IMG/VR virus record: IMGVR_UViG_2844443253_000003
Direction: 5' to 3' (one strand)
Length of the DNA: 52,166 nucleotides
Source of the DNA: a virus
Lineage: Duplodnaviria; Heunggongvirae; Uroviricota; Caudoviricetes
Shown: in pieces, positions 2,137 to 50,544 of the stretch
Position numbering within the stretch: position 1 is the first letter of the stretch
Layout of the letters: each line of letters begins with the position of its first letter
Translations under genes and position numbers: made by a program
Notes under the pieces: generated by a model
What the model was told of the DNA's origin: nothing
The model's input: only the letters and a program-made list of their open reading frames with translations
The model's database searches: none

Positions 2137-2545
2137 TGTTTACAGCCTGGCAAGCCTCTTTGAGCACCCAGTCAACAGCGTCTTTCCATGCTCCGGTTTC
2201 GACTGGCGGATTTTCACGCTTAACCTGTTCATAGAAGCGCACTGCTTTAATCAATCCTTCTGGTGTCAGTGGCACAGGCGGGGCAGTGAATAACGCCTGA
2301 ATTTCATAGTTCGGTCTGTCGTTGCAATCCTCTTTTGTCGGTACATATTTCCAGTCACCAAACCACGGCTCCCCCTGTGAGTCCGCAATGCCTTTTTTCA
2401 CGTAGCGATATCGCCACGCTATCGGCTCTGCTTCCAGTGATGTCAGTGCAATTCGTGCCAGTTCCATTTGTTCGCCACGAGTAAGTCCGTTATCAAGCGG
2501 ATTTTTAATGAATAATTTGATACGTTCTTTGGTCATAGCGCTCAT
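2117..2545 (-). CDS. hypothetical phage protein (start trimmed to MSAMTKERIKLF to avoid overlap)
   Basis: ORF in gene string; track ORF 2117-2707 overlaps upstream gene, internal Met chosen. Confidence 0.45.
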   Translation of the reverse strand: MSAMTKERIKLFIKNPLDNGLTRGEQMELARIALTSLEAEPIAWRYRYVKKGIADSQGEPWFGDWKYVPTKEDCNDRPNYEIQALFTAPPVPLTPEGLIKAVRFYEQVKRENPPVETGAWKDAVDWVLKEACQAVNIGIKGA

Positions 2546-2546
2546 C

Positions 2547-3287
2547 TCACTCTCCTTTGATGCGAATGCCAGCAGCGCGCTCGGCTTCACTTTGTTCCCA
2601 AAACCACTTGTGAAGCGCCATAAGCTTTTCGTCAATCGGTGCATATTTGCGATTAAAGTAGGCCTGAGCATCTTTCTCAGATTCGTCCGGTAATTCGCCA
2701 GGGCCAAACAGTGTGTTATAAATCCATGCCAGTCCGCTCTTAGCGTCGCCAGTTGCCTGCCATTCGATAATGGCAGCCTGCATGACCAGAATGTTTTTCC
2801 CGATTAATAGGTCCAGTTCTTTGAACCGGTTGCGGATGTATGCATTCTCGCTTTGTAATTTCGCGTTGCGCTTTTCTGAGGCTTCAAGTAACGCCTGCTT
2901 ATCGCGTAGCGCTTCTTCCAGTTCAGCAACATGGCATTCACTATCAATAAGGTTGTTCTCTGCGGCTTCCTGCTCTGATTTTCGCAGCAAAGCAGCATAC
3001 TTTAATGCGTCCTGTGCTTTCTGGAATTTAAGTGCATAGTCAGTGGCGATTTTTTCCAGTTCAGCGATGCGCTGTTTTGCTGTTTCCCGCTCATCCAGCA
3101 ATGCCAGCACGGTTTCTGGTCCGGCCAGAAGTTTGAAGGCGTTGAGCGCATCAATATCCACGTCGTAATCTTTAAGCTCCTGCTCGCTTAACAAATCATC
3201 ATCAACTGGCAACATTAACAGGCGTTCCATTGCTGGAATTGCACGTTCCGCCGCCTCACGCAGTGCCTGATAGTCAATCTCGCTCAT
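2547..3287 (-). CDS. Ead/Ea22-like early protein (paralog 1)
   Basis: 246 aa; shares INYQALRE / RIAELE motifs with 3525-4226 and 4524-5039. Confidence 0.55.
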   Translation of the reverse strand: MSEIDYQALREAAERAIPAMERLLMLPVDDDLLSEQELKDYDVDIDALNAFKLLAGPETVLALLDERETAKQRIAELEKIATDYALKFQKAQDALKYAALLRKSEQEAAENNLIDSECHVAELEEALRDKQALLEASEKRNAKLQSENAYIRNRFKELDLLIGKNILVMQAAIIEWQATGDAKSGLAWIYNTLFGPGELPDESEKDAQAYFNRKYAPIDEKLMALHKWFWEQSEAERAAGIRIKGE

Positions 3288-3561
3288 TGGTTGCCTCCTG
3301 TTTTTCTGCCTTCAACACCATGCGAGAACCATCATCCAGTTCCCACGCGATCTCACCACCTTCAACCATGACCAGTCGCCACACCAATTGAGCAGCCTCA
3401 TTGGTAACATCACGACCTAGATCATTGCCAACGCGCACACGTCCACCTTCAACATCGCGCATTTTTTCCAGCATGATAGTTTTTGATAGCGGTGAAAAAA
3501 CAAGCTGTAGTCGTGCTGAATTACTCACTGGTTGTCTCCTTTGCGAATCTGTTCCGCCCAT
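3274..3561 (-). CDS. hypothetical phage protein
   Basis: 95-aa ORF in gene string. Confidence 0.4.
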   Translation of the reverse strand: MGGTDSQRRQPVSNSARLQLVFSPLSKTIMLEKMRDVEGGRVRVGNDLGRDVTNEAAQLVWRLVMVEGGEIAWELDDGSRMVLKAEKQEATNERD

Positions 3562-4226
3562 TCTTCAAGGGATTTCTCCGCATATTCACCAGACAGGCCA
3601 TCAATCGGATGCGGTTCATTAGCCAACTCTTCTTTCGCTGACAGAATCATGCGCGTCACGTCGAAAACTTCACGTAAAGACTTATTGATAAATCCGTGGT
3701 TGAAAGCAGCAGCAAGACGGCTTGCGGTATAGTTAATCCCCTCGTTGCGAGCCGCCGCACGAATTTCAGCCAGAAAAGCATCGGTGGCTGGAGTTTCAGG
3801 AATCCGTCTCCTCATCCGTTCTATTGCATGATTGAATCCGAAGTCTTCAGCAAGAGATACGTCATCCATATTGTCATTGTCATCCTCAATATCCCGTGGC
3901 TCCGGGATTGCAGACTTTATTCCAACATTCTCCACCGCCAGTGCCGCAAGATTAGTTTCCAGCTCTGCAATGCGTTTGCTTTGGGCTTCCCGTTCATCCA
4001 GCAGCGCCTGCACTACTACAGGATTGAAAGCTGCGATAAAACGAGCGTTGTTCTCTGCGTTTTTCTGTCCGTCAAAGCCGGGCCATTTGATAACGTCTTC
4101 ACATCGTTTATCACCGGGCGTATGCACAGCATACGTACCTGTACCCGTCGAAATAAACGCGACCCATTCGCCCTGTGTTGCCTGTTTTGCTATCTCACGC
4201 AGTGCCTGATAGTTAATTTTGGTCAT
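3525..4226 (-). CDS. Ead/Ea22-like early protein (paralog 2)
   Basis: 233 aa; motifs INYQALREIAKQATQGEW and TDAFLAEIRAA shared with paralogs. Confidence 0.55.
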   Translation of the reverse strand: MTKINYQALREIAKQATQGEWVAFISTGTGTYAVHTPGDKRCEDVIKWPGFDGQKNAENNARFIAAFNPVVVQALLDEREAQSKRIAELETNLAALAVENVGIKSAIPEPRDIEDDNDNMDDVSLAEDFGFNHAIERMRRRIPETPATDAFLAEIRAAARNEGINYTASRLAAAFNHGFINKSLREVFDVTRMILSAKEELANEPHPIDGLSGEYAEKSLEEWAEQIRKGDNQ

Positions 4227-7291: not shown

Positions 7292-7456
7292 TCATTGCTT
7301 AACGACCTTAATCAGTTGAGTTACCTCAATGATGTCCTCGCATAAATCCGAGTACTGAAATGGGCCGCAGTTGTGAGAGTTAGTGCGTCGGGCGAAAGCC
7401 ATTCTTCTAAGCTCTTTCAGGGCTTCTTCCAGTTCCTCGTAAGTTGGTTTTTTCAT
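7292..7456 (-). CDS. small hypothetical protein (54 aa), translationally coupled
   Basis: ORF below the 60-aa track cutoff; ATGA start/stop overlaps with neighbours on both sides. Confidence 0.3.
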   Translation of the reverse strand: MKKPTYEELEEALKELRRMAFARRTNSHNCGPFQYSDLCEDIIEVTQLIKVVKQ

Positions 7457-7623
7457 GGCTGTACCTTTTGATTCAGAAACTCAACAAGACGATCCAGCAA
7501 GCTCTTAACGCGAGGTTGTTTAAAGTCTGCTCCGGTTAAAATGTTTTTTCGTGAATGCTGCACCGATAAAATCGGGTTGAAAGGGCGAACCGATGCCGCC
7601 CCTGCAATAGCGAACTGTTGCAT
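7453..7623 (-). CDS. small hypothetical protein (56 aa)
   Basis: internal Met of track ORF 7453-7728 preceded by strong RBS AAGGAG; the longer ORF would span a terminator hairpin. Confidence 0.35.
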   Translation of the reverse strand: MQQFAIAGAASVRPFNPILSVQHSRKNILTGADFKQPRVKSLLDRLVEFLNQKVQP

Positions 7624-7685
7624 AGGATGCTCCTTCTGTTTGATTGCATAACGAAAACGCCTCGAGTGAAGCGTTATTGGTATGC

Positions 7686-7713
7686 ATATAAAAAAGCCCT
7701 CACACTGGAGGGC
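7686..7713 (-). terminator. intrinsic terminator downstream of the 208-aa gene
   Basis: minus-strand hairpin GCCCTC-CAGTGT-GAGGGC followed by TTTTTTATAT. Confidence 0.6.
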
Positions 7714-7847
7714 AAAGAAGATTTCCAATAATCAGAACAAGTCGGCTCCTGTTTAGTTACGAGCGACATTGCTCCGTGTATTCACTCGTTGGAATGAATA
7801 CACAGTGCAGTGTTTATTCTGTTGTTTGTGCCAAAAATAAAGGCCGA

Positions 7848-8473
7848 TTATGCGGCCTCGGAAGGAAGTCCAATCATCTTATTCAAATCTTCTACCCGTA
7901 AAGCAGGAAGTGCTGCACTTGCTTTATCTGCTTCTTTTGGTAGCAACTCTTTGCTTTCAGGCCAAACTTCAATAAGTCGCTTAACTGTTGTGACTGAGTT
8001 CAAAGCAGCCCATACATTTGATTCGATATCCTTTTTCTTGGCTTCAAGTTTTTGTTGCAATGCGCAGATTTCATCAAACCTTTTTGTTATTTCGTGTTCT
8101 GCGCTAAACATGCATTTATCTTGGGTCGGAGTAGGGAGCAATATATCTTCGCCGTTGCAGTCTTTCCCATATGAAAGCCATCCAACCCTTCTGCCAGATA
8201 CAGTCAGATAAATTGATGCAGAACGAACATCGCATGAGCAAAATGAACATCCCAGTTTTTCAAGTTCTTCACTTATAGCTACTAACTTGGATGATAACTG
8301 ATCCACTTCCTCAGTTTTCTTTTTACCGCCAAACGCAATAACTCTGGCGTTAAGTGCAAGCTGGTTCTTTAACTTTGTTACTTCTTTAAGTTCAGTGAAA
8401 ACCCCAGACTTAATTAAAGCGTTACGAGCGATTTCCTCTTTCATTCTCGTAGTTAAGCGGATTGATGACATAT
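7848..8473 (-). CDS. hypothetical early protein, AT-rich (208 aa from MSSIRLTT)
   Basis: ORF directly downstream of N; RBS GAGAGG upstream of chosen ATG; about 40% GC; coiled-coil-like with Cys cluster. Confidence 0.5.
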
Positions 8474-8482
8474 TAATTCCTC

Positions 8483-8782
8483 TCAAATAAGTGGTTTGCT
8501 GCCTAATTTTATTTTCTGGCGACCAACACAAGTCACACCCATTTCACTCCGTGGCTTCCGGTAGTAAATACGGTTCTGTTTACGCTCGACTTCTTCTGCC
8601 TTCTTGCAGCGAAGGCTTCCGAGTGATGCTGCTTTATCTGCTCTGACGCAACCAGAGAGCTTTAGCGCAATTTTTCGCGCCAGTCTCTGCTCTTGCATTG
8701 CCTGTTCACGTTGAGCCTGCCTGCGTGCTCTGCGGCGATTTCTGGCGTTATCGTCAGCCAGATATGTAATGACCACTGTCAT
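8483..8782 (-). CDS. N: N-like transcription antiterminator
   Basis: 99 aa beginning MTVVITY with arginine-rich motif NARNRRRARRQAQREQ; first gene of pL operon; boxA/boxB-like nutL upstream. Confidence 0.6.
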   Translation of the reverse strand: MTVVITYLADDNARNRRRARRQAQREQAMQEQRLARKIALKLSGCVRADKAASLGSLRCKKAEEVERKQNRIYYRKPRSEMGVTCVGRQKIKLGSKPLI

Positions 8783-9094: not shown

Positions 9095-9138
9095 GTTCCC
9101 GCATTTCGGCGGGACAATCCCATCAATGTTAAAGAGCC
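9095..9138 (-). promoter_or_regulatory. nutL-like site (boxA GCTCTTTAAC plus boxB-like hairpin)
   Basis: minus-strand GGCTCTTTAAC followed by hairpin TCCCGC-CGAAAT-GCGGGA, about 40-80 nt downstream of proposed pL. Confidence 0.45.
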
Positions 9139-9183: not shown

Positions 9184-9262
9184 AATTTAAGATCTCTTTA
9201 ATTAATGGTCAAGAGTATTTTTGAAGAAAACTTAAATTTTCTTTCGTAACTTAAGTTTAGCT
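9184..9262 (-). promoter_or_regulatory. pL/oL region: P22-type operators and leftward promoter
   Basis: 18-mer ATTTAAGATCTCTTTAAT (9185-9202) and related half-sites; minus-strand -35 TTGACC, 17-bp spacer, -10 TAAATT. Confidence 0.5.
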
Positions 9263-9274
9263 TTGATTTTTAAA

Positions 9275-9301
9275 GGAAATAAAAAAGGGGCGAATGCCCC
9301 C
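9275..9301 (-). terminator. intrinsic terminator immediately after repressor stop codon
   Basis: minus-strand hairpin GGGGGCATTCGCCCC followed by TTTTTTATTTCC. Confidence 0.6.
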
Positions 9302-9952
9302 TTATGGAAGGTTTGCTAGTTTTGCATCGACAACTACGCCGATGATTTTGCAGTTTCCGTTGATCTCGATCATCGGATATTGTGGGTTAAGTGGTTTTAG
9401 AAACTTCCTGCCTGCATCAATAACTAACTTCTTGAAAGTTGACTCGTTTTCTCCTTCGAGCTTTGCAACTACCAGTTTCCCGTTACGCGGCTCTACTTCA
9501 GGATCGACGAGTATTATCATTCCTTCAGGGATACTGAGACCGGCCGGAGCCGTCATTGAGTCTCCCTTCACGTCCAACCAAAACGAATCTTCTGAACAGT
9601 CTACGGTTGTATCGTACCAGTTATCTATTGCACGCTTATGATATGGTTCTACAGCTTCCATCCAGCATCCTGCGCTCACCCAGCTAATCAGAGGGTATGA
9701 CCCTCTTGGATCATGCCTACTGTGATAGGCAATGTTTGAAAGACTTTCCTCTCCTTTCATCAGATAGTCAGGGGAACACTTCAACGCATTAGCCAGGGCG
9801 AGAAGATTCTCTCCATTTGGCTCTGTCTCAGAGCGTTCCCACTGAGATATGGCAACATTAGACACGCCGACCATCTTTCCAAGTGCGGCCTGCCTGATCT
9901 TGAGTTCTTTTCTCCGAGCGCGAATGCGCTCTCCCATCAATTGAGTTTTCAT
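9302..9952 (-). CDS. c2: CI-type repressor, P22 C2-like (HTH plus LexA-like S24 autocleavage domain)
   Basis: 216 aa; sequence closely resembles P22 C2 as I recall it (MxTQLMGERIRARRK ... GNCKIIGVVVDAKLANLP). Confidence 0.9.
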   Translation of the reverse strand: MKTQLMGERIRARRKELKIRQAALGKMVGVSNVAISQWERSETEPNGENLLALANALKCSPDYLMKGEESLSNIAYHSRHDPRGSYPLISWVSAGCWMEAVEPYHKRAIDNWYDTTVDCSEDSFWLDVKGDSMTAPAGLSIPEGMIILVDPEVEPRNGKLVVAKLEGENESTFKKLVIDAGRKFLKPLNPQYPMIEINGNCKIIGVVVDAKLANLP

Positions 9953-10218: not shown

Positions 10219-10326
10219 GCAAATTGCTCTTTAACAGTCATGGTCCTCATTCCCGCCGAAATGCGGGAATACAACGCGCATAAGTTGATGCGCATAACTT
10301 CTTATTTGTTAAGGAAATACTTACAT

Positions 10327-12597: not shown

Positions 12598-13038
12598 ATG
12601 AAAAAACTAACCTTTGAAATTCGATCTCCAGCACATCAGCAAAACGCTATTCACGCAGTACAGCAAATCCTTCCAGACCCAACCAAACCAATCGTAGTAA
12701 CCATTCAGGAACGCAACCGCAGCTTAGACCAAAACAGGAAGCTATGGGCCTGCTTAGGTGACGTCTCTCGTCAGGTTGAATGGCATGGTCGCTGGCTGGA
12801 TGCAGAAAGCTGGAAGTGTGTGTTTACCGCAGCATTAAAGCAGCAGGATGTTGTTCCTAACCTTGCCGGGAATGGCTTTGTGGTAATAGGCCAGTCAACC
12901 AGCAGGATGCGTGTAAACGAATTTGCGGAGCTATTAGAGCTTATACAGGCATTCGGTACAGAGCGTGGCGTTAAGTGGTCAGACGAAGTGCGACTGGCTC
13001 TCGAATGGAAAGCGCGATGGGGAGATCGGGCTGCATGA
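12598..13038 (+). CDS. ninB: NinB (Orf-family recombination mediator)
   Basis: start at MKKLTFEIRSPAHQQNAIHAV after RBS GGGAGAGAGGGAAG. Confidence 0.8.
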   Translation: MKKLTFEIRSPAHQQNAIHAVQQILPDPTKPIVVTIQERNRSLDQNRKLWACLGDVSRQVEWHGRWLDAESWKCVFTAALKQQDVVPNLAGNGFVVIGQSTSRMRVNEFAELLELIQAFGTERGVKWSDEVRLALEWKARWGDRAA

Positions 13039-13391
13039 CTATCAAATCAAATACGCCAGCACACGACAAGGACTGCTGGCAAACGCCGCTTTGGCTTTTT
13101 GATGCACTGGATATTGAGTTTGGATTCTGGCTGGATTCGGCAGCGAGCGACAAAAATGCTCTGTGCACTCACTGGTTAACTGAGGCCGACGACGCGCTAA
13201 ATTCTGAGTGGATAAGCCACGGTGCAATCTGGAATAACCCACCGTACAGCAATATCAGGCCGTGGGTGGAAAAAGCCGCTGAGCAGTGCATACAACAGCG
13301 ACAGACGGTAGTTATGCTTGTGCCAGAGGATATGTCAGTCGGATGCCGGACATTACCGGACAACTGCTGCGGCACCTCAACTCCGATTTGA
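13035..13391 (+). pseudogene. truncated phage Dam-like N6-adenine DNA methyltransferase (N-terminal part only)
   Basis: start coupled to ninB stop (ATGA); motif NPPYS present; ORF stops about 30 codons later where the NinG frame takes over. Confidence 0.5.
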
Positions 13392-13617
13392 TGAACGCAA
13401 TATTCACAAGCAATGCGTGGTGTGCAACCAGCACAAAAGCGGAAATCTCGTTCCGTATCGCGTCGAACTGATTAGCCGCATCGGGCAGGAAGCAGTAGAC
13501 GAAATCGAATCAAACCATAACCGCCATCGCTGGACTGTCGAAGAGTGCAGGGCCATCAAGGCGGAGTATCAGCAGAAACTCAAAGACCTGCGAAACAGCA
13601 GAAGTGAGGCCGCATGA
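13318..13617 (+). pseudogene. ninG: NinG C-terminal fragment (no N-terminal half, no ATG)
   Basis: [16 protein letters not shown]...[43 protein letters not shown]...NSRSEAA matches the C-terminus of lambda NinG as I recall it. Confidence 0.6.
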
Positions 13618-13660
13618 CGTTCTCAGTAAAAACCATTCCAGATCACAAGGGAGAAGGCGC

Positions 13661-14149
13661 ATGGGCATAAGAGAACTAAACCTCACCAAAGAACAGCACG
13701 AGTGGCTGAATGGCTGGCTTGAACTGTGGGGCGCATGGGTTTATTCAGGTCGTCTGGAAAAGCGCATGAGCAGCGTAATAGCTAAGTTCATGGAGAGCGT
13801 AGAGCCGGGAAGAGTTATGACAAGGCCAATGTGTAATGATGATGATGGAATGTTGATTTCTCAGGTCGTCGATTCCGTCATGTACATTGACAAGAAAGCC
13901 TTTGGCATCCTCCTCAGCTACTACGCCCACGGCTCTTCCAAGCACGCCATTGCATCTTACTATCATCGCGTCGCAAGACCTCGCAAGATGTTATGCCGGG
14001 GCGGCGGGCGCATTCAAAAACCATCGCTCGCAACCTGTCGACGGGAAGTTGACGAAATCCTCAATGCCTCGTTGTTTATGATTTACCCGGTTCTGGATAG
14101 TGCGTTTAAAAACCGGAAACGTGTAGAGAAAATTAAACATGTAGCATAG
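13661..14149 (+). CDS. Q: late-gene antiterminator Q (QuuD/Q21-like family), start at MGIRELNL
   Basis: motifs WGAW and RPMCNDDDGMLIS / ILLSYYAHG resemble the E. coli QuuD pattern; position before tRNAs and lysis genes. Confidence 0.6.
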   Translation: MGIRELNLTKEQHEWLNGWLELWGAWVYSGRLEKRMSSVIAKFMESVEPGRVMTRPMCNDDDGMLISQVVDSVMYIDKKAFGILLSYYAHGSSKHAIASYYHRVARPRKMLCRGGGRIQKPSLATCRREVDEILNASLFMIYPVLDSAFKNRKRVEKIKHVA

Positions 14150-14240: not shown

Positions 14241-14315
14241 GGGTCAGTCGTATAAAGGTCATTACGGAAGGCTGTTAACCTTCTTATCGTGGTTCGAGTC
14301 CACGCTGTCCCGCCA
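14241..14315 (+). tRNA. phage-encoded tRNA-Asn (anticodon GTT)
   Basis: hand-folded cloverleaf: anticodon loop CTGTTAA, T-arm CGTGGTTCGAGTCCACG, 3' CCA; one mismatch each in acceptor and D stems. Confidence 0.6.
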
Positions 14316-14320
14316 AACAT

Positions 14321-14396
14321 GCTGGTTTAGCTCCAATGGTAGAGCAGTCGCCTTGTAAGCGAATGGGTAGCGGTTCAAGTCCGTTAACCAGCACCA
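14321..14396 (+). tRNA. phage-encoded tRNA-Thr (anticodon TGT)
   Basis: hand-folded cloverleaf: acceptor GCTGGTT/AACCAGC, D-arm GCTCCAATGGTAGAGC, anticodon loop CTTGTAA, T-loop TTCAAGT, 3' ACCA. Confidence 0.7.
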
Positions 14397-39993: not shown

Positions 39994-41247
39994 TTAAGGC
40001 TGTTTTTTTATTAATGTCATCGTCCATCCTGCAGGGTTGAACTTGAAAGAATACGATTCTCCTGGTGCTAAGCTTTCAAATTTTTTAACTTGCTCTTTCC
40101 ACCCGTAATCTGGGAGTGGGGTAAGATTGAAAAAATATAAACATGAGATTAACGATGTTGTATATAACATCCATGGTAGGAATTTAAAGTGCAAGTGGGA
40201 AATATAGTTTAAGAAGTAAACCAATACAGAGTACCATATAATTGTTGGTATGACAGAATATCTTCCTCCGCCATGAATTAATAATGGCCATTGCTCACTT
40301 GTAGATGAAAGCATTGGTTTTGCTAGTGAAAACGTTAATGTTAGTATTGCGAAAACTATTGCCGAGCGCATGGGGTAATTGGAAACAATAAATGTAAAAA
40401 TAGTGATGGAAAGACAAATTATTGTAATTGCAATGCAAATTGAATCATGATTCCATAAAGGTGATAAAAAGTCACCATTAGCCCATAAACCCAGAAAAAC
40501 CTTTGTTGTTAATATTTTGCAAAGTGTTGCAAAATTAGCTCCAAGAACCATATCAACTCTGGTCTCAGAGGATGTCATAATAATAGAAATAAATTGAATC
40601 AAACAAATGGCAATGAAAACGTATTCGTGAGTGGTTATTTTTTTTGTAGATAAGCGTTTTTGTATAAGTATATTTATCCCTACCATTGGAGCCATGAATA
40701 CTATAAATGGACCACTTAGTCCACATATGATTATCGCTATATAATCGTGTGCTTTTTGATAATTATTTGTAGGCTTTGGAGCTAACATAACAAGAAGTAA
40801 ATATAGTGATAAATACCAATGATCATTAGTAACATTGGCGTGCACTTCTGATACTTCAGGCATTATTATAATAAACAAAGCAGTAAATATTCTTGGTGTT
40901 ATGTTTACGTAACTAAATCTTCCAGAGAGTATGAAAGATACAAGCAATGCCCTAACAATAATTGCGGAGATGTTAAAAATTAAAGGGGCATACATTAAAT
41001 TAAAATTTAATGATATGGAGGCAATAAGTTTTGATATGGTTTGATAATATCCATTTTGAGGGAATATCATTGATGTGAATATGCCATTATTGTATGCCAT
41101 AGCATACCATACATGACCATCTTCTGCCCAAAACTGCGGTGTTCTGATTATATCAGGGCGGCGCAAATACATCAAAATAACCGCAATGAAAAATACAGCA
41201 ATTAAGAAAAATAGTTTTTTTACATATGATGTTTTAAGGCTTTTCAT
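39994..41247 (-). CDS. serotype-specific O-antigen glucosyltransferase Gtr(type), polytopic membrane protein
   Basis: 417 aa, hydrophobic, AT-rich, third gene of gtrA-gtrB-gtr operon next to attR; exact type (GtrV/GtrX/other) not determinable here. Confidence 0.8.
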
Positions 41248-42167
41248 TTTTGTTTCTCATTTTTGATGATGTATTTGGGACGATGTTTGCTTTCAATATA
41301 GATTCTGCCTATATATTCACCGAGAACACCAATCCCGATCAGCTGCACTCCACCCAAGAAAAGTATTGATACAAGCAGGGAGGGATACCCGCGTACTGGG
41401 TTACCAAAGACAAGGGTGTCTATAATCATCCATGCACCATATAAAAATGAAATGCTTGCAACAAACAAGCCTATATAAGTCCATACGCGAAGAGGAAAGG
41501 TTGAAAAACTTGTGATACCTTCCAGTGCCAGATTCCATAATTTCCAGCCATTAAATTTTGAGATGCCAGCAACGCGCTCTGCGCGTACATATTCAACGAC
41601 ATCTGTCTGACCACCCACCCAGCTCAGTATGCCTTTCATGAAAAGATTGCGCTCAGGCAACAGTTTAATGTTCTCCACAACCTCACGAGACATGAGTCGA
41701 AAATCTCCGACATTTTCCTCGATCTTTGGGGTGCTTATTTTGTTGTGTAACTTATAGAACCACTCAGCTGTCTTACGTTTCAGTCGTCCATCAGTTGAGC
41801 GGTCTGAACGTTTAGCAAGCACCATGTCAGCACCTGCCTGCCACTTTTCAATAAGATGAGGGATAACCTCAATTGGGTCTTGCAGGTCGACATCAATAGG
41901 AATTACAGCATCGCCGCTTGCATGGTCTAACCCTGCAAATAAGGCTGGTTCTTTACCAAAGTTGCGTGTAAATGACAGCGGAACAACTAGCGGGTCTGAA
42001 ACAGCCAGCGCGTTAATAATTGACTCCGTGGCATCTTTACTTCCGTCATTTATGAATACAATTTCTACTTCATATGGCTTCAACTCTTGGAATTCACGTA
42101 CCGTTTTATAGAAAACAGGTATCGCTTCTTCTTCATTGAAGACAGGAACGACAAGAGATATTTTCAT
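41244..42167 (-). CDS. gtrB: bactoprenol glucosyltransferase GtrB
   Basis: 307 aa GT-2 family N-terminus [17 protein letters not shown]...INDGSKD; C-terminal TM helices. Confidence 0.9.
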
Positions 42168-42526
42168 TTCGCATCCCTAAAGACAATGAACTTTGAATAG
42201 ACGAAACCGCACACCAGGCTGATGGCGGAGAAGGTGATAAGAGTGACTATTGGAGGAAGTGAGCATTTATCAGCAGCCCAACCAACAATCACACTCAATA
42301 TTCCCATGAATCCCACGTATAACATGTAGCGCATCGCTGTAGTCGATGCTTTGAATGTGAATCTTGCATTCGCGAAGAAGCTAAAGCTCACAGCCACTAC
42401 GAAACCTGTGAAGTTTGCCAGGGCCTGACTGGTATGTGCGGCATAGATACATACACCAAAAACCACCCAGTGTATAAGTGTGTTCAGCACACCTATAGAT
42501 GTGTACTTTACAAATAACTTTAACAT
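42164..42526 (-). CDS. gtrA: GtrA flippase-like membrane protein
   Basis: 120 aa, four predicted TM segments, [23 protein letters not shown]. Confidence 0.9.
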
Positions 42527-43146: not shown

Positions 43147-44412
43147 TGAGGTGTACTGGCAATAGCGGACACTACCATTTGTTCTTTTTTTAAGCAGCCA
43201 TCTGATGATATTTTTCCCTGAAGGCTGCCGGGGAGATATTCCCCAGACGAGAGTGACGACGCTGACGATTGTAGAAAATCTCAATGTATTCCCGTATTAC
43301 TGAGATGGCTTCATCCCGGTTATTAAAACGATAGTGGCTCAGGCTCTCATTTTTCAGCGTTCCCCAGAAGCTTTCCATCGGAGCGTTGTCGTAACAGTTA
43401 CCTTTACGCGACATTGATGTTTTCAGACCAAACTGCTCCTGTATGACCCGGTAATCGTATGCGCAGTACTGTGAACCTCGATCAGAGTGGTGGATTAGCC
43501 CGGCAGGTGGGCGCTGGCTCCTGAGCGCCATAAACAGGGCTTTACCTGTCAGCTCTTTTGTCATGCGCTCTCCCATGGCGTAGCCGACAATTTCGCACGT
43601 ATAAACATCTTTGATGCCAGCGAGGTACAACCATCCCTCCTGTGTGGCAACATACGTCAGGTCCGCCACCCAGACCTGATTTGGTGCTGTAGGAGCGAAC
43701 GTCTGGTTCAGCAGATTTGGCGCAACTGGCAGATTGTGGTTCGGGTTCGTAGTCGCTCTGAACTTGCGTTTCTGCTTACAGCGTAGCCTCAGCTCCTTAC
43801 GAAGACGTGCCAGTCGGTCACGACCAACGATGATGCCATTCTCTGCCAGCTCCGTCTGGAGCCGCCGGGTTCCATATGTTTCGCGAGTGCGGATATGTGC
43901 CACCTTAATCTCCGGTTTTAGCCGCTCATCACTTTGTTTTCTGTCTGAGGGTTCATGCTGTACCCAGTTGTAATAACCGCTCCTGGATACACCAAATACC
44001 TGACACATCGCTTCAATGGGAAATTGTTGTCGCCATTGTTCGATTAACGCGTATTTTTCAGCGACTCCTGTGCAAAATACGCTGTTGCTTTTTTTTAATA
44101 TATCTCGCTCAAGGCGAGCTTCATTTAACGCCTTACGCAGTTGCAGAATTTCAGATTCCAGTTCAGCCAGCGTGCGGGAACCAGGAGTACCGAGCCCTTT
44201 TCTGGCGGCGGTAACCCATTGTCCTAAAGTGCCTTCAGGAAGGAATAATCGGGAAGCGTCTTCACTGATCGAAAGTTGATTTTCAAGAACCGTTCTGACA
44301 GCTTCGGCTTTGAACTCTTTAGAGTAACGTTGGGTTTTTCTGCTCATTATTAGCTCCTTCTGATGCCATTCTATTTCAGGAAGGAGTGTCCGTTAAACTC
44401 AGGCTACCTCAG
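43147..44412 (-). mobile_element. IS600 (IS3 family) copy 1, no flanking target duplication
   Basis: ends TGAGGTAGCCTGAGTTTAACGGACACTCC / GGTAGTGTCCGCTATTGCCAGTACACCTCA shared with copies at 47312 and 51306; flanking triplets differ (CCC vs GAC). Confidence 0.85.
43190..44347 (-). CDS. IS600 transposase as a contiguous OrfAB fusion (385 aa)
   Basis: A-run of 8 at the slippery site (vs 7 in copy 2) puts orfA and orfB in one frame. Confidence 0.8.
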   Translation of the reverse strand: MSRKTQRYSKEFKAEAVRTVLENQLSISEDASRLFLPEGTLGQWVTAARKGLGTPGSRTLAELESEILQLRKALNEARLERDILKKSNSVFCTGVAEKYALIEQWRQQFPIEAMCQVFGVSRSGYYNWVQHEPSDRKQSDERLKPEIKVAHIRTRETYGTRRLQTELAENGIIVGRDRLARLRKELRLRCKQKRKFRATTNPNHNLPVAPNLLNQTFAPTAPNQVWVADLTYVATQEGWLYLAGIKDVYTCEIVGYAMGERMTKELTGKALFMALRSQRPPAGLIHHSDRGSQYCAYDYRVIQEQFGLKTSMSRKGNCYDNAPMESFWGTLKNESLSHYRFNNRDEAISVIREYIEIFYNRQRRHSRLGNISPAAFREKYHQMAA

Positions 44413-44509: not shown

Positions 44510-44832
44510 ATGACTAAAAATACTCGTTTTTCCCCCGAAGTCCGTCAACGGGCAGTCCGTATGGTTCTGGAAAGTCAGGGCGAATATGACTCACAATGGG
44601 CGACAATTTGTTCCATTGCCCCAAAGATTGGCTGTACGCCGGAGACTCTGCGTGTCTGGGGTCGCCAGCATGAGCGGGATACCGGGGGCGGTGATGGAGG
44701 GCTCACCACCGCTGAACGTCAGCGTCTGAAAGAGCTGGAGCGTGAAAATCGTGAACTGCGCCGCAGTAACGATATCCTTCGCCAGGCTTCCGCTTATTTT
44801 GCGAAGGCGGAGTTCGACCGCCTCTGGAAAAA

Positions 44833-44836
<4 letters not shown>
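44510..44836 (+). CDS. IS629 OrfA
   Basis: [50 protein letters not shown]. Confidence 0.85.
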
Positions 44837-45719
<883 letters not shown>

Positions 45720-46367: not shown

Positions 46368-46717
46368 TGGAGCCATACAGCCTCACACTCGATGAGGCCT
46401 GTCATTTTCTCAAGATATCCAGACCGACTGCCATTAACTGGATACGCACAGGGCGTCTTCAGGCAACACGCAAAGATCCCACTAAGAATAAATCTCCTTA
46501 CCTCACAACACGACAAGCCTGCATTGCGGCTCTTCAGTCTCCGCTGCATACTGTCCAGGTGAGCGCGGGTGATGGCATAACAGAGGAAAGAAAATGTCAC
46601 TCTTCCGCAGAGGTGAAATATGGTACGCCAGTTTCACATTGCCGAACGGTAAAAGATTTAAACAGTCTCTTGGAACAAAGGACAAAAGGCAGGCGACAGA
46701 ACTCCATGACAAGCTAA
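46367..46717 (+). CDS. xis: excisionase-like protein, second copy
   Basis: near-identical to 1245-1595 product. Confidence 0.55.
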
Positions 46718-47311
46718 AGGCTGAAGCATGGCGGGTCAGCAAACTTGGTGAAATACCTGATATAACGTTCGAGGAAGCGTGTGTCAGGTGGCTTGAAGAG
46801 AAAGCACATAAAAAATCACTGGACGATGACAAAAGCCGGATCGGATTCTGGCTTCAACATTTCGCAGGAATACAACTAAGAGACATTACTGAATCAAAAA
46901 TTTATTCAGCAATGCAGAAAATGACGAACCGGCGTCATGAGGAAAACTGGAAACTCAGGGCAGAATCATGCAGAAAAAAAGGGAAACCTGTTCCAGAATA
47001 CACGCCAAAACCAGCGTCCGTTGCAACGAAGGCTACGCATCTTTCATTTATAAAGGCCCTACTAAGAGCCGCAGAGCGTGAATGGAAAATGCTGGATAAG
47101 GCACCAATTATTAAAGTGCCTCAACCAAAGAATAAACGGATCCGCTGGCTGGAGCCCCATGAAGCACAAAGGCTGATTGATGAATGTCCGGAGCCATTAA
47201 AGTCTGTTGTTGAATTTGCACTGGCAACAGGCTTAAGACGCTCGAACATCATCAACCTTGAATGGCAACAAATAAATATGCAGCGCCGGGTGGCATGGAT
47301 AAACCCGGAAG
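46594..47311 (+). pseudogene. int: integrase N-terminal fragment (second copy) interrupted by IS600
   Basis: about 98% identical to N-terminal 238 aa of int 205-1368; frame broken at IS600 left end. Confidence 0.8.
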
Positions 47312-47375
47312 TGAGGTAGCCTGAGTTTAACGGACACTCCTTCCTGAAATAGAATGGCATCAGAAGGAGCTAATA

Positions 47376-47713: not shown

Positions 47714-48532
47714 ATGTGTCAGGTATTTGGTGTATCCAGGAGCGGTTATTACAACTGGGTACAGCATGAACCCTCAGACAGAAAACAAAGTGATGAGCGG
47801 CTAAAACTGGAGATTAAGGTGGCACATATCCGCACTCGCGAAACATATGGAACCCGGCGGCTCCAGACGGAGCTGGCAGAGAATGGCATCATCGTTGGTC
47901 GTGACCGACTGGCACGTCTTCGTAAGGAGCTAAGGCTACGCTGTAAGCAGAAACGCAAGTTCAGAGCGACTACGAACCCGAACCACAATCTGCCAGTTGC
48001 GCCAAATCTGCTGAACCAGACGTTCGCTCCTACAGCACCAAATCAGGTCTGGGTGGCGGACCTGACGTATGTTGCCACACAGGAGGGATGGTTGTACCTC
48101 GCTGGCATCAAAGATGTTTATACGTGCGAAATTGTCGGCTACGCCATGGGAGAGCGCATGACAAAAGAGCTGACAGGTAAAGCCCTGTTTATGGCGCTCA
48201 GGAGCCAGCGCCCACCTGCCGGGCTAATCCACCACTCTGATCGAGGTTCACAGTACTGCGCATACGATTACCGGGTCATACAGGAGCAGTCTGGTCTGAA
48301 AACATCAATGTCGCGTAAAGGTAACTGTTACGACAACGCTCCGATGGAAAGCTTCTGGGGAACGCTGAAAAATGAGAGCCTGAGCCACTATCGTTTTAAT
48401 AACCGGGATGAAGCCATCTCAGTAATACGGGAATACATTGAGATTTTCTACAATCGTCAGCGTCGTCACTCTCGTCTGGGGAATATCTCCCCGGCAGCCT
48501 TCAGGGAAAAATATCATCAGATGGCTGCTTAA
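47714..48532 (+). CDS. IS600 OrfB (DDE domain)
   Basis: 272 aa in -1 frame relative to orfA; A7 slippery run at 47627-47633. Confidence 0.85.
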   Translation: MCQVFGVSRSGYYNWVQHEPSDRKQSDERLKLEIKVAHIRTRETYGTRRLQTELAENGIIVGRDRLARLRKELRLRCKQKRKFRATTNPNHNLPVAPNLLNQTFAPTAPNQVWVADLTYVATQEGWLYLAGIKDVYTCEIVGYAMGERMTKELTGKALFMALRSQRPPAGLIHHSDRGSQYCAYDYRVIQEQSGLKTSMSRKGNCYDNAPMESFWGTLKNESLSHYRFNNRDEAISVIREYIEIFYNRQRRHSRLGNISPAAFREKYHQMAA

Positions 48533-49371: not shown

Positions 49372-50544
49372 ATGCATATGATTGAAATTAACAGTTTATT
49401 ATTAATAACATCCGTGATATTGATGTCGTTATTAGCTGTGGGGTTATTTGATAAAATTTCCCCAATAAATCTTGTTGAGCACGGCAGGAATAATCAAATA
49501 GATGGAATGCGGGGGTTCTTAGCAATTTTCGTGCTTATTCATCACGCAGCAATTTGGAATGGATACTTGTCATCTGGAGTATGGGAAGCACCTTCATCAA
49601 ATCTGTTAGCAAATTTAGGCCAAGTTGGTGTGTCATTCTTTTTTATGATTACTGGTTATCTGTTCTTTTCAAAGATTATCTCTGGAGATCAGGACTGGAC
49701 AAGGCTTTATGTATCAAGATTACTACGATTAACCCCAATGTTCATAGTTAGCCTATGTCTCATTTTTATCATTGTAGGTTTTAAGTCTGGATGGAGAATG
49801 CAGGTATCCACAGAAGAGCTTTTTGTGTCAATAATGAAGTGGTTGCCATTCACTGCGCTAGGTATGCCGAACATTAATGACGTAAAAGATTCATTTACTA
49901 TCAATGCCGCTGTAACATGGACACTTGTATATGAATGGTTCTTTTATTTTTCTCTTCCGGTAATTTCCGCGCTCATAAAAAGAAAAGTCAGTATTTACAT
50001 GGTTATGATTAGCGCAATATCGCTATTTGTTTTCATTTTATTTTTCAGTAAAATACACATAGCATCATTTCTTTTTGGGCTCCTGGCATTTTTGCTAAAT
50101 AAATCAAAGATAGTCAATGGAATTGCCAAAGCAAAAGTAACACCAATTATAATAACTGCGATAATGGTTTTTGAAATGACGTATTTCAAAACAACTTACG
50201 CACCGCTACCACTGATTCTTTGTGGAATAACATTTATCATTATCGCATCAGGTTGTGATTTGTATGGAATATTAAGATTAAATATAACCAGAAAGCTAGG
50301 AGAAACTACCTACAGCGTTTACCTTCTGCATGGGATATTCCTTTATTGCCTAATGACGTGGATTATTCCTAATAATTACACTGAAAATACATTTATCATA
50401 CTGGTAAGCACAACTGCATTTCTTATTACGTTCACATCATGCCTAACTTTTAAATTAATAGAGACGCCATTCATCAAATTAACAAAACAAACCACAACTT
50501 TAGTAAAAGAATTAATACCCACATTAACAAACAACAATCAATAA
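49372..50544 (+). CDS. acyltransferase-3 family integral membrane protein, candidate O-antigen O-acetyltransferase
   Basis: 390 aa, about 10 TM segments, AT-rich; N-proximal motif IDGMRGFLAIFVLIHH typical of acyltransferase-3/OafA-like enzymes. Confidence 0.7.
   Translation: MHMIEINSLLLITSVILMSLLAVGLFDKISPINLVEHGRNNQIDGMRGFLAIFVLIHHAAIWNGYLSSGVWEAPSSNLLANLGQVGVSFFFMITGYLFFSKIISGDQDWTRLYVSRLLRLTPMFIVSLCLIFIIVGFKSGWRMQVSTEELFVSIMKWLPFTALGMPNINDVKDSFTINAAVTWTLVYEWFFYFSLPVISALIKRKVSIYMVMISAISLFVFILFFSKIHIASFLFGLLAFLLNKSKIVNGIAKAKVTPIIITAIMVFEMTYFKTTYAPLPLILCGITFIIIASGCDLYGILRLNITRKLGETTYSVYLLHGIFLYCLMTWIIPNNYTENTFIILVSTTAFLITFTSCLTFKLIETPFIKLTKQTTTLVKELIPTLTNNNQ

Follow-up and report, generated by a model that had tools for sequence, protein, structure and literature searches.

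A Gene of the Nmad5 Family Next to N in a Lambdoid Prophage and Its Possible Role in Phage–Host Conflict

Which gene lies directly behind the N antiterminator gene of a lambdoid prophage, and what could its product do for the phage? The question was raised by a first-pass annotation of the 52,166-nucleotide viral DNA of IMG/VR record IMGVR_UViG_2844443253_000003 (the whole of this stretch is called the window here), which pointed to an AT-rich gene in a slot known for anti-restriction and exclusion functions and did not recognise the family of its product. Our analysis showed that this gene, here called nmad5, is known, catalogued and already annotated, and is not a new kind of gene or system; it is a rightly spotted accessory gene that belongs to a known, uncharacterised family.

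The minus-strand reading frame directly after the N-like gene holds, with its ATG 11 nt past the N stop codon (Table 1). Its start had been placed 2 nt too far upstream, at position 8473, giving 208 amino acids; translation of 7848–8473 is out of frame. The gene does have its own ribosome-binding site and a low GC content, as had been noticed before (40.4%; the window has 48.4% and N has 49.3%). Close homologues are intact in 79 of 81 loci (the window and 80 prophage loci) and comprise 64 distinct alleles, for which dN/dS is about 0.31. Thus, nmad5 is a functional gene and not a chance reading frame. Antisense to it runs a 133-aa ORF (7810–8211, plus strand), which is probably a shadow ORF because homology and selection both back the minus-strand gene.

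Table 1. Features of the immunity region and of the early-left operon around nmad5 (window coordinates)
Feature	Position	Strand	Details
nutR	10226-10236 (boxA), 10251-10268 (boxB)	+	Exact second copy of the nutL elements, after cro
cI	9302-9952	-	Immunity region
Terminator-like hairpin at end of cI	9284-9303	-	Consensus scan; dG -12.8 kcal/mol
pL-like sigma-70 promoter	9184-9212	-	TTGACC-17 nt-TAAATT; consensus scan; between cI terminator and nutL
nutL	9097-9137	-	boxA GCTCTTTAACA at 9137-9127; boxB hairpin TCCCGCCGAAATGCGGGA at 9114-9097
N-type antiterminator gene	8483-8782	-	99 aa; arginine-rich motif DDNARNRRRARRQAQREQ; PHROG 271 "anti-termination protein N-like", E 1.7e-36
Shine-Dalgarno sequence of nmad5	8479-8484	-	GAGAGG; overlaps the N TGA stop; 7-nt spacer to ATG; direct sequence reading
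nmad5 coding sequence	7848-8471	-	207 aa; ATG 8471-8469, TAA 7850-7848; ORF list and sequence
Hairpin 1	7831-7859 (stem-loop 7859-7840)	-	GAGGCCG-CATAAT-CGGCCTT plus U-rich tail; dG -11.0 kcal/mol; loop holds the nmad5 stop codon
Hairpin 2	7688-7713 (stem-loop 7713-7696 plus T-run)	-	dG -11.1 kcal/mol
Hairpin 3	7656-7675	-	Just upstream of cIII; dG -9.9 kcal/mol
cIII-like gene	7453-7623	-	56 aa; next in operon; PHROG 550 "CIII", E 2.2e-18, residues 36-91 of a longer ORF; ATG read from sequence

The window holds a lambdoid prophage integrated beside a tRNA-Thr gene, with int at 205–1368. Identical boxA-plus-boxB nut sites lie on both sides of the immunity region, and the boxB pair was never attained in 100 shuffles. 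On the rightward side, the order is cro, nutR, a cII-like ORF, O and P. The N-type gene, assigned by its PHROG match, also matched the Pfam N_peptide model with an E value of 8.3e-4, under the gathering score.

In phage lambda, the terminator tL1 lies directly after N. In this prophage, consensus scans, from which all promoter and terminator calls were made, gave no sigma-70-like promoter between pL and nmad5 and no minus-strand terminator-like site over the same interval. Three consecutive terminator-like hairpins occupy the 225-nt spacer between nmad5 and cIII (7656–7859), and the counterpart of tL1 comes after nmad5. One of them is the terminator described in the first-pass annotation at 7686–7713, and another, closer one overlaps the nmad5 stop codon. 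Hairpin 1 also occurs in the related loci, and some variants have mismatched stems; 12 of these loci have T-T in place of one C-G pair, a change on both arms that weakens the stem and is not compensatory. Since nmad5 lies upstream of all three hairpins, it is probably transcribed together with N before antitermination sets in, and its product is probably an N-independent, immediate-early product of infection or induction. In the lysogen, nmad5 should be silent and repressed along with pL, because no promoter-like site precedes it and a terminator follows cI; the hairpin at the end of cI would insulate the genes of the pL operon from pRM transcription.

This layout bears on a role in superinfection exclusion or lysogenic conversion from the prophage, such as those of sieB, rex and nun. 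Such a role would agree with the moron-like low GC content of nmad5 and with the slot that it has in common with a Nun-like gene in some phages. However, only a Shine-Dalgarno sequence, and no promoter-like site, was found in front of the gene, which starts 11 nt past N, and nmad5 also occurs in strictly virulent phages (N4-like, Dhillonvirus and M6-like). A sieB-like exclusion in the lysogen is therefore unlikely, and we consider exclusion or conversion as a whole very improbable.

Several other features of the window were recorded. The distal early-left operon (2547–4226, minus strand) contains two paralogous Ead/Ea22-like genes (246 and 233 aa) and genes of DUF7446 and DUF7739. Genes for tRNA-Asn (GTT) and tRNA-Thr (TGT) at 14241–14396 (plus strand) lie between the Q antiterminator gene (13604–14149) and the lysis genes, comparable to some Stx-type phages. 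At the far end of the prophage is an O-antigen glucosylation (serotype-conversion) module (39994–42526, minus strand) made up of gtrA (PF04138), gtrB (GT2) and a 417-aa gtr-specific gene. IS3-family transposase genes (43190–44347, minus strand; 44510–45719, with an ALIL frameshift pseudoknot at 44791–44907 inside it; and 47714–48532), an integrase fragment (46594–47319) and an Acyl_transf_3 gene (49372–50544) suggest that the prophage end or a neighbouring island is degraded.

The profile search that had been proposed for the product gave a clear family. The protein matched Pfam PF18757 (Nucleotide modification associated domain 5, Nmad5) over its full length with 229.9 bits, compared to a gathering cut-off of 27, and an E value of 4.2e-68; residues 4–203 align to positions 1–206 of the 206 in the model. 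It also matched PHROG 1965 (E 1.2e-80), an entry without an assigned function. The family had in fact been named already, as RefSeq/PGAP labels copies about 95–98% identical in DNA sequence "Nmad5 family putative nucleotide modification protein". No assignment as a recombination accessory or other housekeeping protein, which would have contradicted the accessory reading, was obtained. There was no match in NCBIfam, none to any of the PADLOC defence models at E values up to 1, and none to Ral (PF11058) or Gad1 (PF25705) at E values up to 0.1; neighbouring genes in related loci did match the Ral and Gad1 models of the same library. The validated "NMAD" defence domain of DefensePredictor was considered as well and set aside as irrelevant, as it is Nmad2 and not Nmad5. 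Full-text literature searches found nothing for PF18757 or phrog_1965; of four papers that mention Nmad5, a single one reports experiments, on Dhillonvirus and on no lambdoid copy.

Nmad5 genes are widespread in phages. Among 5,426 complete E. coli genomes, 211 carry a copy of nmad5 at 90% nucleotide identity or more, and lambdoid carriers include Stx1a- and Stx2a-converting phages, HK244, mEp235 and E. coli prophages. When 1.84 billion cluster representatives were searched with a profile, 2,661 Nmad5 clusters (50% identity) were obtained at E values up to 1e-3; the best 150 of these are almost all single-domain proteins of 190–230 amino acids that align over their whole length. Shortened Nmad5 clusters (P0004 and P0009) are common in the protein database. 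Plasmids almost lack the family (6 of 72,556 records, none of them mobilizable), and a location on conjugative plasmids or in their leading regions was rejected for this reason. Ard-type antirestriction genes are characteristic of conjugative plasmids, so the near-absence of Nmad5 from plasmids counts against a counter-defence function.

The predicted slot was examined in 80 related E. coli loci. Homologues were found at the same N-proximal place in related prophages, and their varied neighbours support the view that an accessory slot of variable content lies between N and cIII. N is the gene immediately upstream of nmad5 in 51 of the 81 loci, with four types of arginine-rich motif distinguished by sequence inspection, and the upstream stop codon lies at a distance of exactly 11 nt in 37 loci. 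Ral is directly upstream in seven loci (PF11058, E 2e-48) and a Nun-like termination factor in another seven (phrog_5632); the remaining upstream neighbours are several small ORFs of no recognised family. The Nun-like gene is located between N and nmad5, as in L015 (5520–5861), mEp235 (L003, 3532–3861) and a Shimwellia locus (L104, 4526–4864), and several prophages therefore have N and a Nun-like gene together. The phrog_5632 E value is about 1e-69 for the L015 and mEp235 genes, and the Shimwellia gene was assigned by sequence similarity only.

Downstream of nmad5, at least 18 arrangements occur in the 80 loci. Homology to the window breaks about 20–340 nt past the stop codon and runs through hairpin 1 in most loci. 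One arrangement opens with a homologue of the anti-Gabija protein Gad1 (PF25705, E 5.7e-67); this gene lies at L019:6703–7770 (plus strand) on an E. coli-type lambdoid prophage contig (IMGVR_UViG_3300045988_127283). With neighbours varying on both sides, nmad5 and hairpin 1 appear to behave as a small mobile module in the N–cIII accessory slot. In at least nine enterobacterial genera, nmad5 is the first or second early-left gene after cI or N. Outside E. coli, 31 loci with 44–60% identical homologues were compared, among them prophages of Klebsiella, Proteus, Providencia, Morganella, Photorhabdus, Dryocola and Izhakiella as well as IMG/VR viral contigs. An S24 repressor gene lies on the same strand at most 2.2 kb upstream in 23 of these loci, N is found upstream in 12–15, and nmad5 is the first ORF after cI in several. 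The Shimwellia copy (95% identical) is arranged likewise, and a 27% identical relative heads an early operon that diverges from an HTH gene.

What kind of protein is encoded at this place? The first-pass annotation described it as rich in coiled coils and suggested a structure prediction. A confident AlphaFold2 model (pLDDT 87, pTM 0.73, from a 54-sequence alignment) shows mostly long helices. There are three N-terminal helices (8–72), a small beta region (86–124), a long helix (127–158) and a C-terminal cluster of short helices with a low-confidence linker (184–192) and a final conserved helix. The beta region is the variable part and is larger by about 50 residues in Dhillonvirus. No solved structural relative of the model was found, and sequence searches of the PDB, with the single sequence and with a profile, gave nothing significant.

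Conservation in the family is found at both ends. The N-terminus contains R5-L6-T7 ... N17-A18-L19, and conservation is strongest at the C-terminus (A-L-N-S-V-T-T-x-K-R-L-I-E-V-W-P-E ... L-P-A-L-x-V-E-D-L-N-K-M-I-G-L-P), where the product carries the W-P-E and L-N-x-x-x-G-L-P motifs of the family. Residues T162, L166, W170, E172 and N197 are invariant in 54 Nmad5 sequences; judged from the alignment, this is not a catalytic-looking constellation. The cysteine cluster that had been noted is present in this allele (C75, C78, C80, C105, C120 and C136) and is not a family feature. In a set of 65 distinct E. coli-type proteins, Tyr replaces C78 in 63 and C80 in 42, and Gly replaces C105 in 63; neither the 54- nor the 68-sequence family alignment contains a conserved cysteine. 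These replacements, which affect the majority of close homologues, led us to reject a zinc-binding or other cysteine-cluster metal-binding protein. The product has a pI of 8.1 and a net charge of +1.6, and the pI of its N-terminal 75 residues is 9.5. DNA-mimic proteins such as Ocr and ArdA are strongly acidic. A DNA mimic of this type therefore seems unlikely.

The name of the family originates from its occurrence in thymidine-hypermodification clusters. In M6/YuA/PaMx11-like Pseudomonas phages, Nmad5 lies between aGPT-Pplase1/HMUDK_hel and a dU hydroxymethylase (thymidylate-synthase-like). A factor that recruits or regulates a base-modifying enzyme of phage or host, and thus participates in DNA or nucleotide modification, would agree with this association; PGAP and Pfam keep the name, and a Dam-family remnant is found in the nin region of this prophage. 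We regard such a factor as improbable for several reasons. First, Pfam scans of 31 window ORFs (early-left, nin and accessory) revealed no kinase, transferase or hydroxymethylase of thymidine hypermodification, no aGPT-Pplase and no intact methyltransferase or other DNA-modification enzyme, but only the shortened Dam fragment. The association implied by the family name does not extend to these ORFs. Second, the Dam-family ORF (12975–13617, plus strand) covers only positions 1–101 of the 169 in its model and overlaps an ORF whose match to NinG is confined to the C-terminal half (105–192 of 193), which looks like a deletion fusing two nin-region genes. Dam occurs in 12 of the 80 nmad5 loci, compared to 40 that reach ninB, and an obligatory partnership with a phage Dam was rejected on these grounds. 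Third, thymidine hypermodification in M6 was studied with gp51–55 only, and gp51 and gp54 were enough for the first transfer step (PMC8989533); by gene order, the Nmad5 gene of M6 is outside this set. Fourth, the annotation of one phage record suggested that Nmad5 is homologous to the helical domain of the 5-hmdU DNA kinase or to aGPT-Pplase1; this was rejected with an hhalign probability of 0.5%. Residues conserved in a catalytic manner are absent from the family alignment.

The contexts in other phages suggest a further explanation, which is the main rival to the one we prefer. The product could be a replication or nucleotide-metabolism adaptor, that is, a non-catalytic scaffold that couples dNTP-synthesis or replication proteins of phage or host to the phage DNA as lytic growth begins; its link to defence would then be incidental, for example as a "core" protein that is sensed. 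Such an adaptor would be in keeping with the order ThyX–Nmad5–PD-(D/E)XK–primase in N4-like phages, exonuclease–Nmad5–dNMP kinase in a metagenomic phage and HMUDK_hel–Nmad5–thymidylate-synthase homologue in M6/PaMx11-like phages, and with the DUF2800 nuclease, ssDNA-binding protein and DNA polymerase A genes downstream of Nmad5 in a Photorhabdus prophage. The family is also broad, conservative, phage-restricted and under purifying selection. However, none of those enzymes is encoded by the lambdoid prophages that carry nmad5, and some of these prophages have a very small early-left operon (in Klebsiella, nmad5, kil, a few small ORFs, xis and int). Recombinase genes show no consistent linkage either: RecT is found here, Erf in mEp235 and AAA_24/SSB in Proteus, and a tie to one recombination module was rejected accordingly. 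Overall, we regard the adaptor as possible but somewhat unlikely.

Direct experiments come from Dhillonvirus phages that escape the defence system Tmn. Escape mutants carried K216E in nmad5 of PhiSMA8 or K296E in nmad5 of PhiSMS22; the mutation alone allowed escape and its reversion restored sensitivity to Tmn (PMC11846954). Counted along the 253/254-aa Dhillonvirus homologues, position 216 takes the K/R place in T-x-K-[K/R]-L-I-x-x-W-P-E, the most strongly conserved motif of the family, and corresponds to R165 here; this mapping holds if the protein of PhiSMA8 is as long as is usual in Dhillonvirus. Deletion of nmad5 gave viable phages that did not escape Tmn, and the wild-type gene could not be cloned, which the authors attributed to apparent toxicity (PMC11846954). 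That nmad5 is dispensable for plaque formation speaks against an adaptor. Because the deletion is viable without escape, the escape mutation represents a gain or change of function. A dispensable, apparently toxic early protein in which a single charge reversal in the best-conserved motif alters the outcome of a defence fits a binding protein in phage–host conflict.

Collectively, we tentatively favour the view that the nmad5 product is a non-catalytic, immediate-early binding protein in phage–host conflict, serving counter-defence or host takeover. The evidence for it consists of the position of the gene, its low-GC, moron-like module, the conflict genes that share its slot (Ral, Nun-like and Gad1), the Dhillonvirus data, the lack of an enzyme signature and the M6 work on a set of proteins that, by gene order, does not contain Nmad5; from these we infer N-independent expression, binding in place of catalytic action, and a counter-defence role. 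The 23-kDa, mostly helical and probably non-catalytic product would be made from pL with N, before the first terminators, and would most likely act stoichiometrically. Its invariant C-terminal module (T-x-K-[K/R]-L-I-x-x-W-P-E ... L-P-A-L-x-V-x-D-L-N-x-x-I-G-L-P) may dock on a partner, such that the response of the host to incoming or replicating phage DNA would be blunted or evaded; no nucleotide would be chemically modified by the protein. Some findings run against a counter-defence role. The neighbours of Nmad5 in virulent phages (ThyX, a thymidylate-synthase-like hydroxymethylase, dNMP kinase, DNA polymerase, primase and PD-(D/E)XK nuclease) do not make up typical anti-defence islands, and a large, conservative family with a dN/dS of 0.31 looks more like a core accessory function than like an inhibitor that evolves fast. 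A bolder proposal, which is speculative and on present evidence somewhat unlikely, is that "Nmad5" is a misnomer. The family would then be widespread among phages and restricted to them, and its protein, of a fold absent from the PDB, would act immediately early in counter-defence or host takeover. Its conserved C-terminal motif would engage a sensor or effector pathway of the host (for example, that of Tmn-type KAP NTPases), and lambdoid phages would place the gene with N, before the first terminator, to have it made first.

These results are of interest beyond the present prophage. Nmad5 is a large phage family whose name steers annotators toward nucleotide modification. The lambdoid copies argue against this, as no intact modification enzyme was detected in their vicinity and they take the most promoter-proximal place of the early-left operon, beside known counter-defence genes. 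Phages mEp235 and HK244 carry nmad5 and plate on E. coli K-12, and they therefore offer simple genetics for the function of Nmad5 and its relation to Tmn.

Compared to other lambdoid copies, nmad5 of the window shows only allelic differences, including its extra non-conserved cysteines. The HK244 and mEp235 ORFs are 94% identical to its product in amino acid sequence over the full length, and copies of this type lie between N and cIII/kil, as here. Unlike the window, mEp235 has its Nun-like gene between N and nmad5, and nmad5 of the Stx2a phages is split by a 1.3-kb insertion. In Stx2_EH1965 (LC616032.1, L103), the homologue is in two parts (1089–1199 and 2501–3022) that encode residues 1–37 and 34–207 and lie about 1.3 kb apart, which suggests disruption by an inserted element.

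Compared to more distant systems, the likeness is partial. The Dhillonvirus proteins (PhiSMS22 CDS6 and PhiSMA8 CDS7, with homologues in SECphi18 and LM40P1) belong to the same Pfam family and share the N-terminal R-L-T and the C-terminal T-x-K-K/R-L-I-x-x-W-P-E ... L-N-x-x-x-G-I/L-P; however, they are only about 25% identical, reach 253–254 amino acids through an insertion of about 50 residues in the middle region, and are encoded between head genes on the opposite strand and not in an early operon. [quoted passage not shown] Ocr and ArdA resemble nmad5 as promoter-proximal, first-expressed accessory genes, but they show no homology to its product, whose family is almost absent from plasmids. 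Finally, the counter-defence genes for Ral (PF11058) and Gad1 (PF25705) have no sequence or fold relationship to nmad5; all are early accessory genes of the same pL-proximal slot, in which Ral and Gad1 accompany nmad5 and do not replace it.
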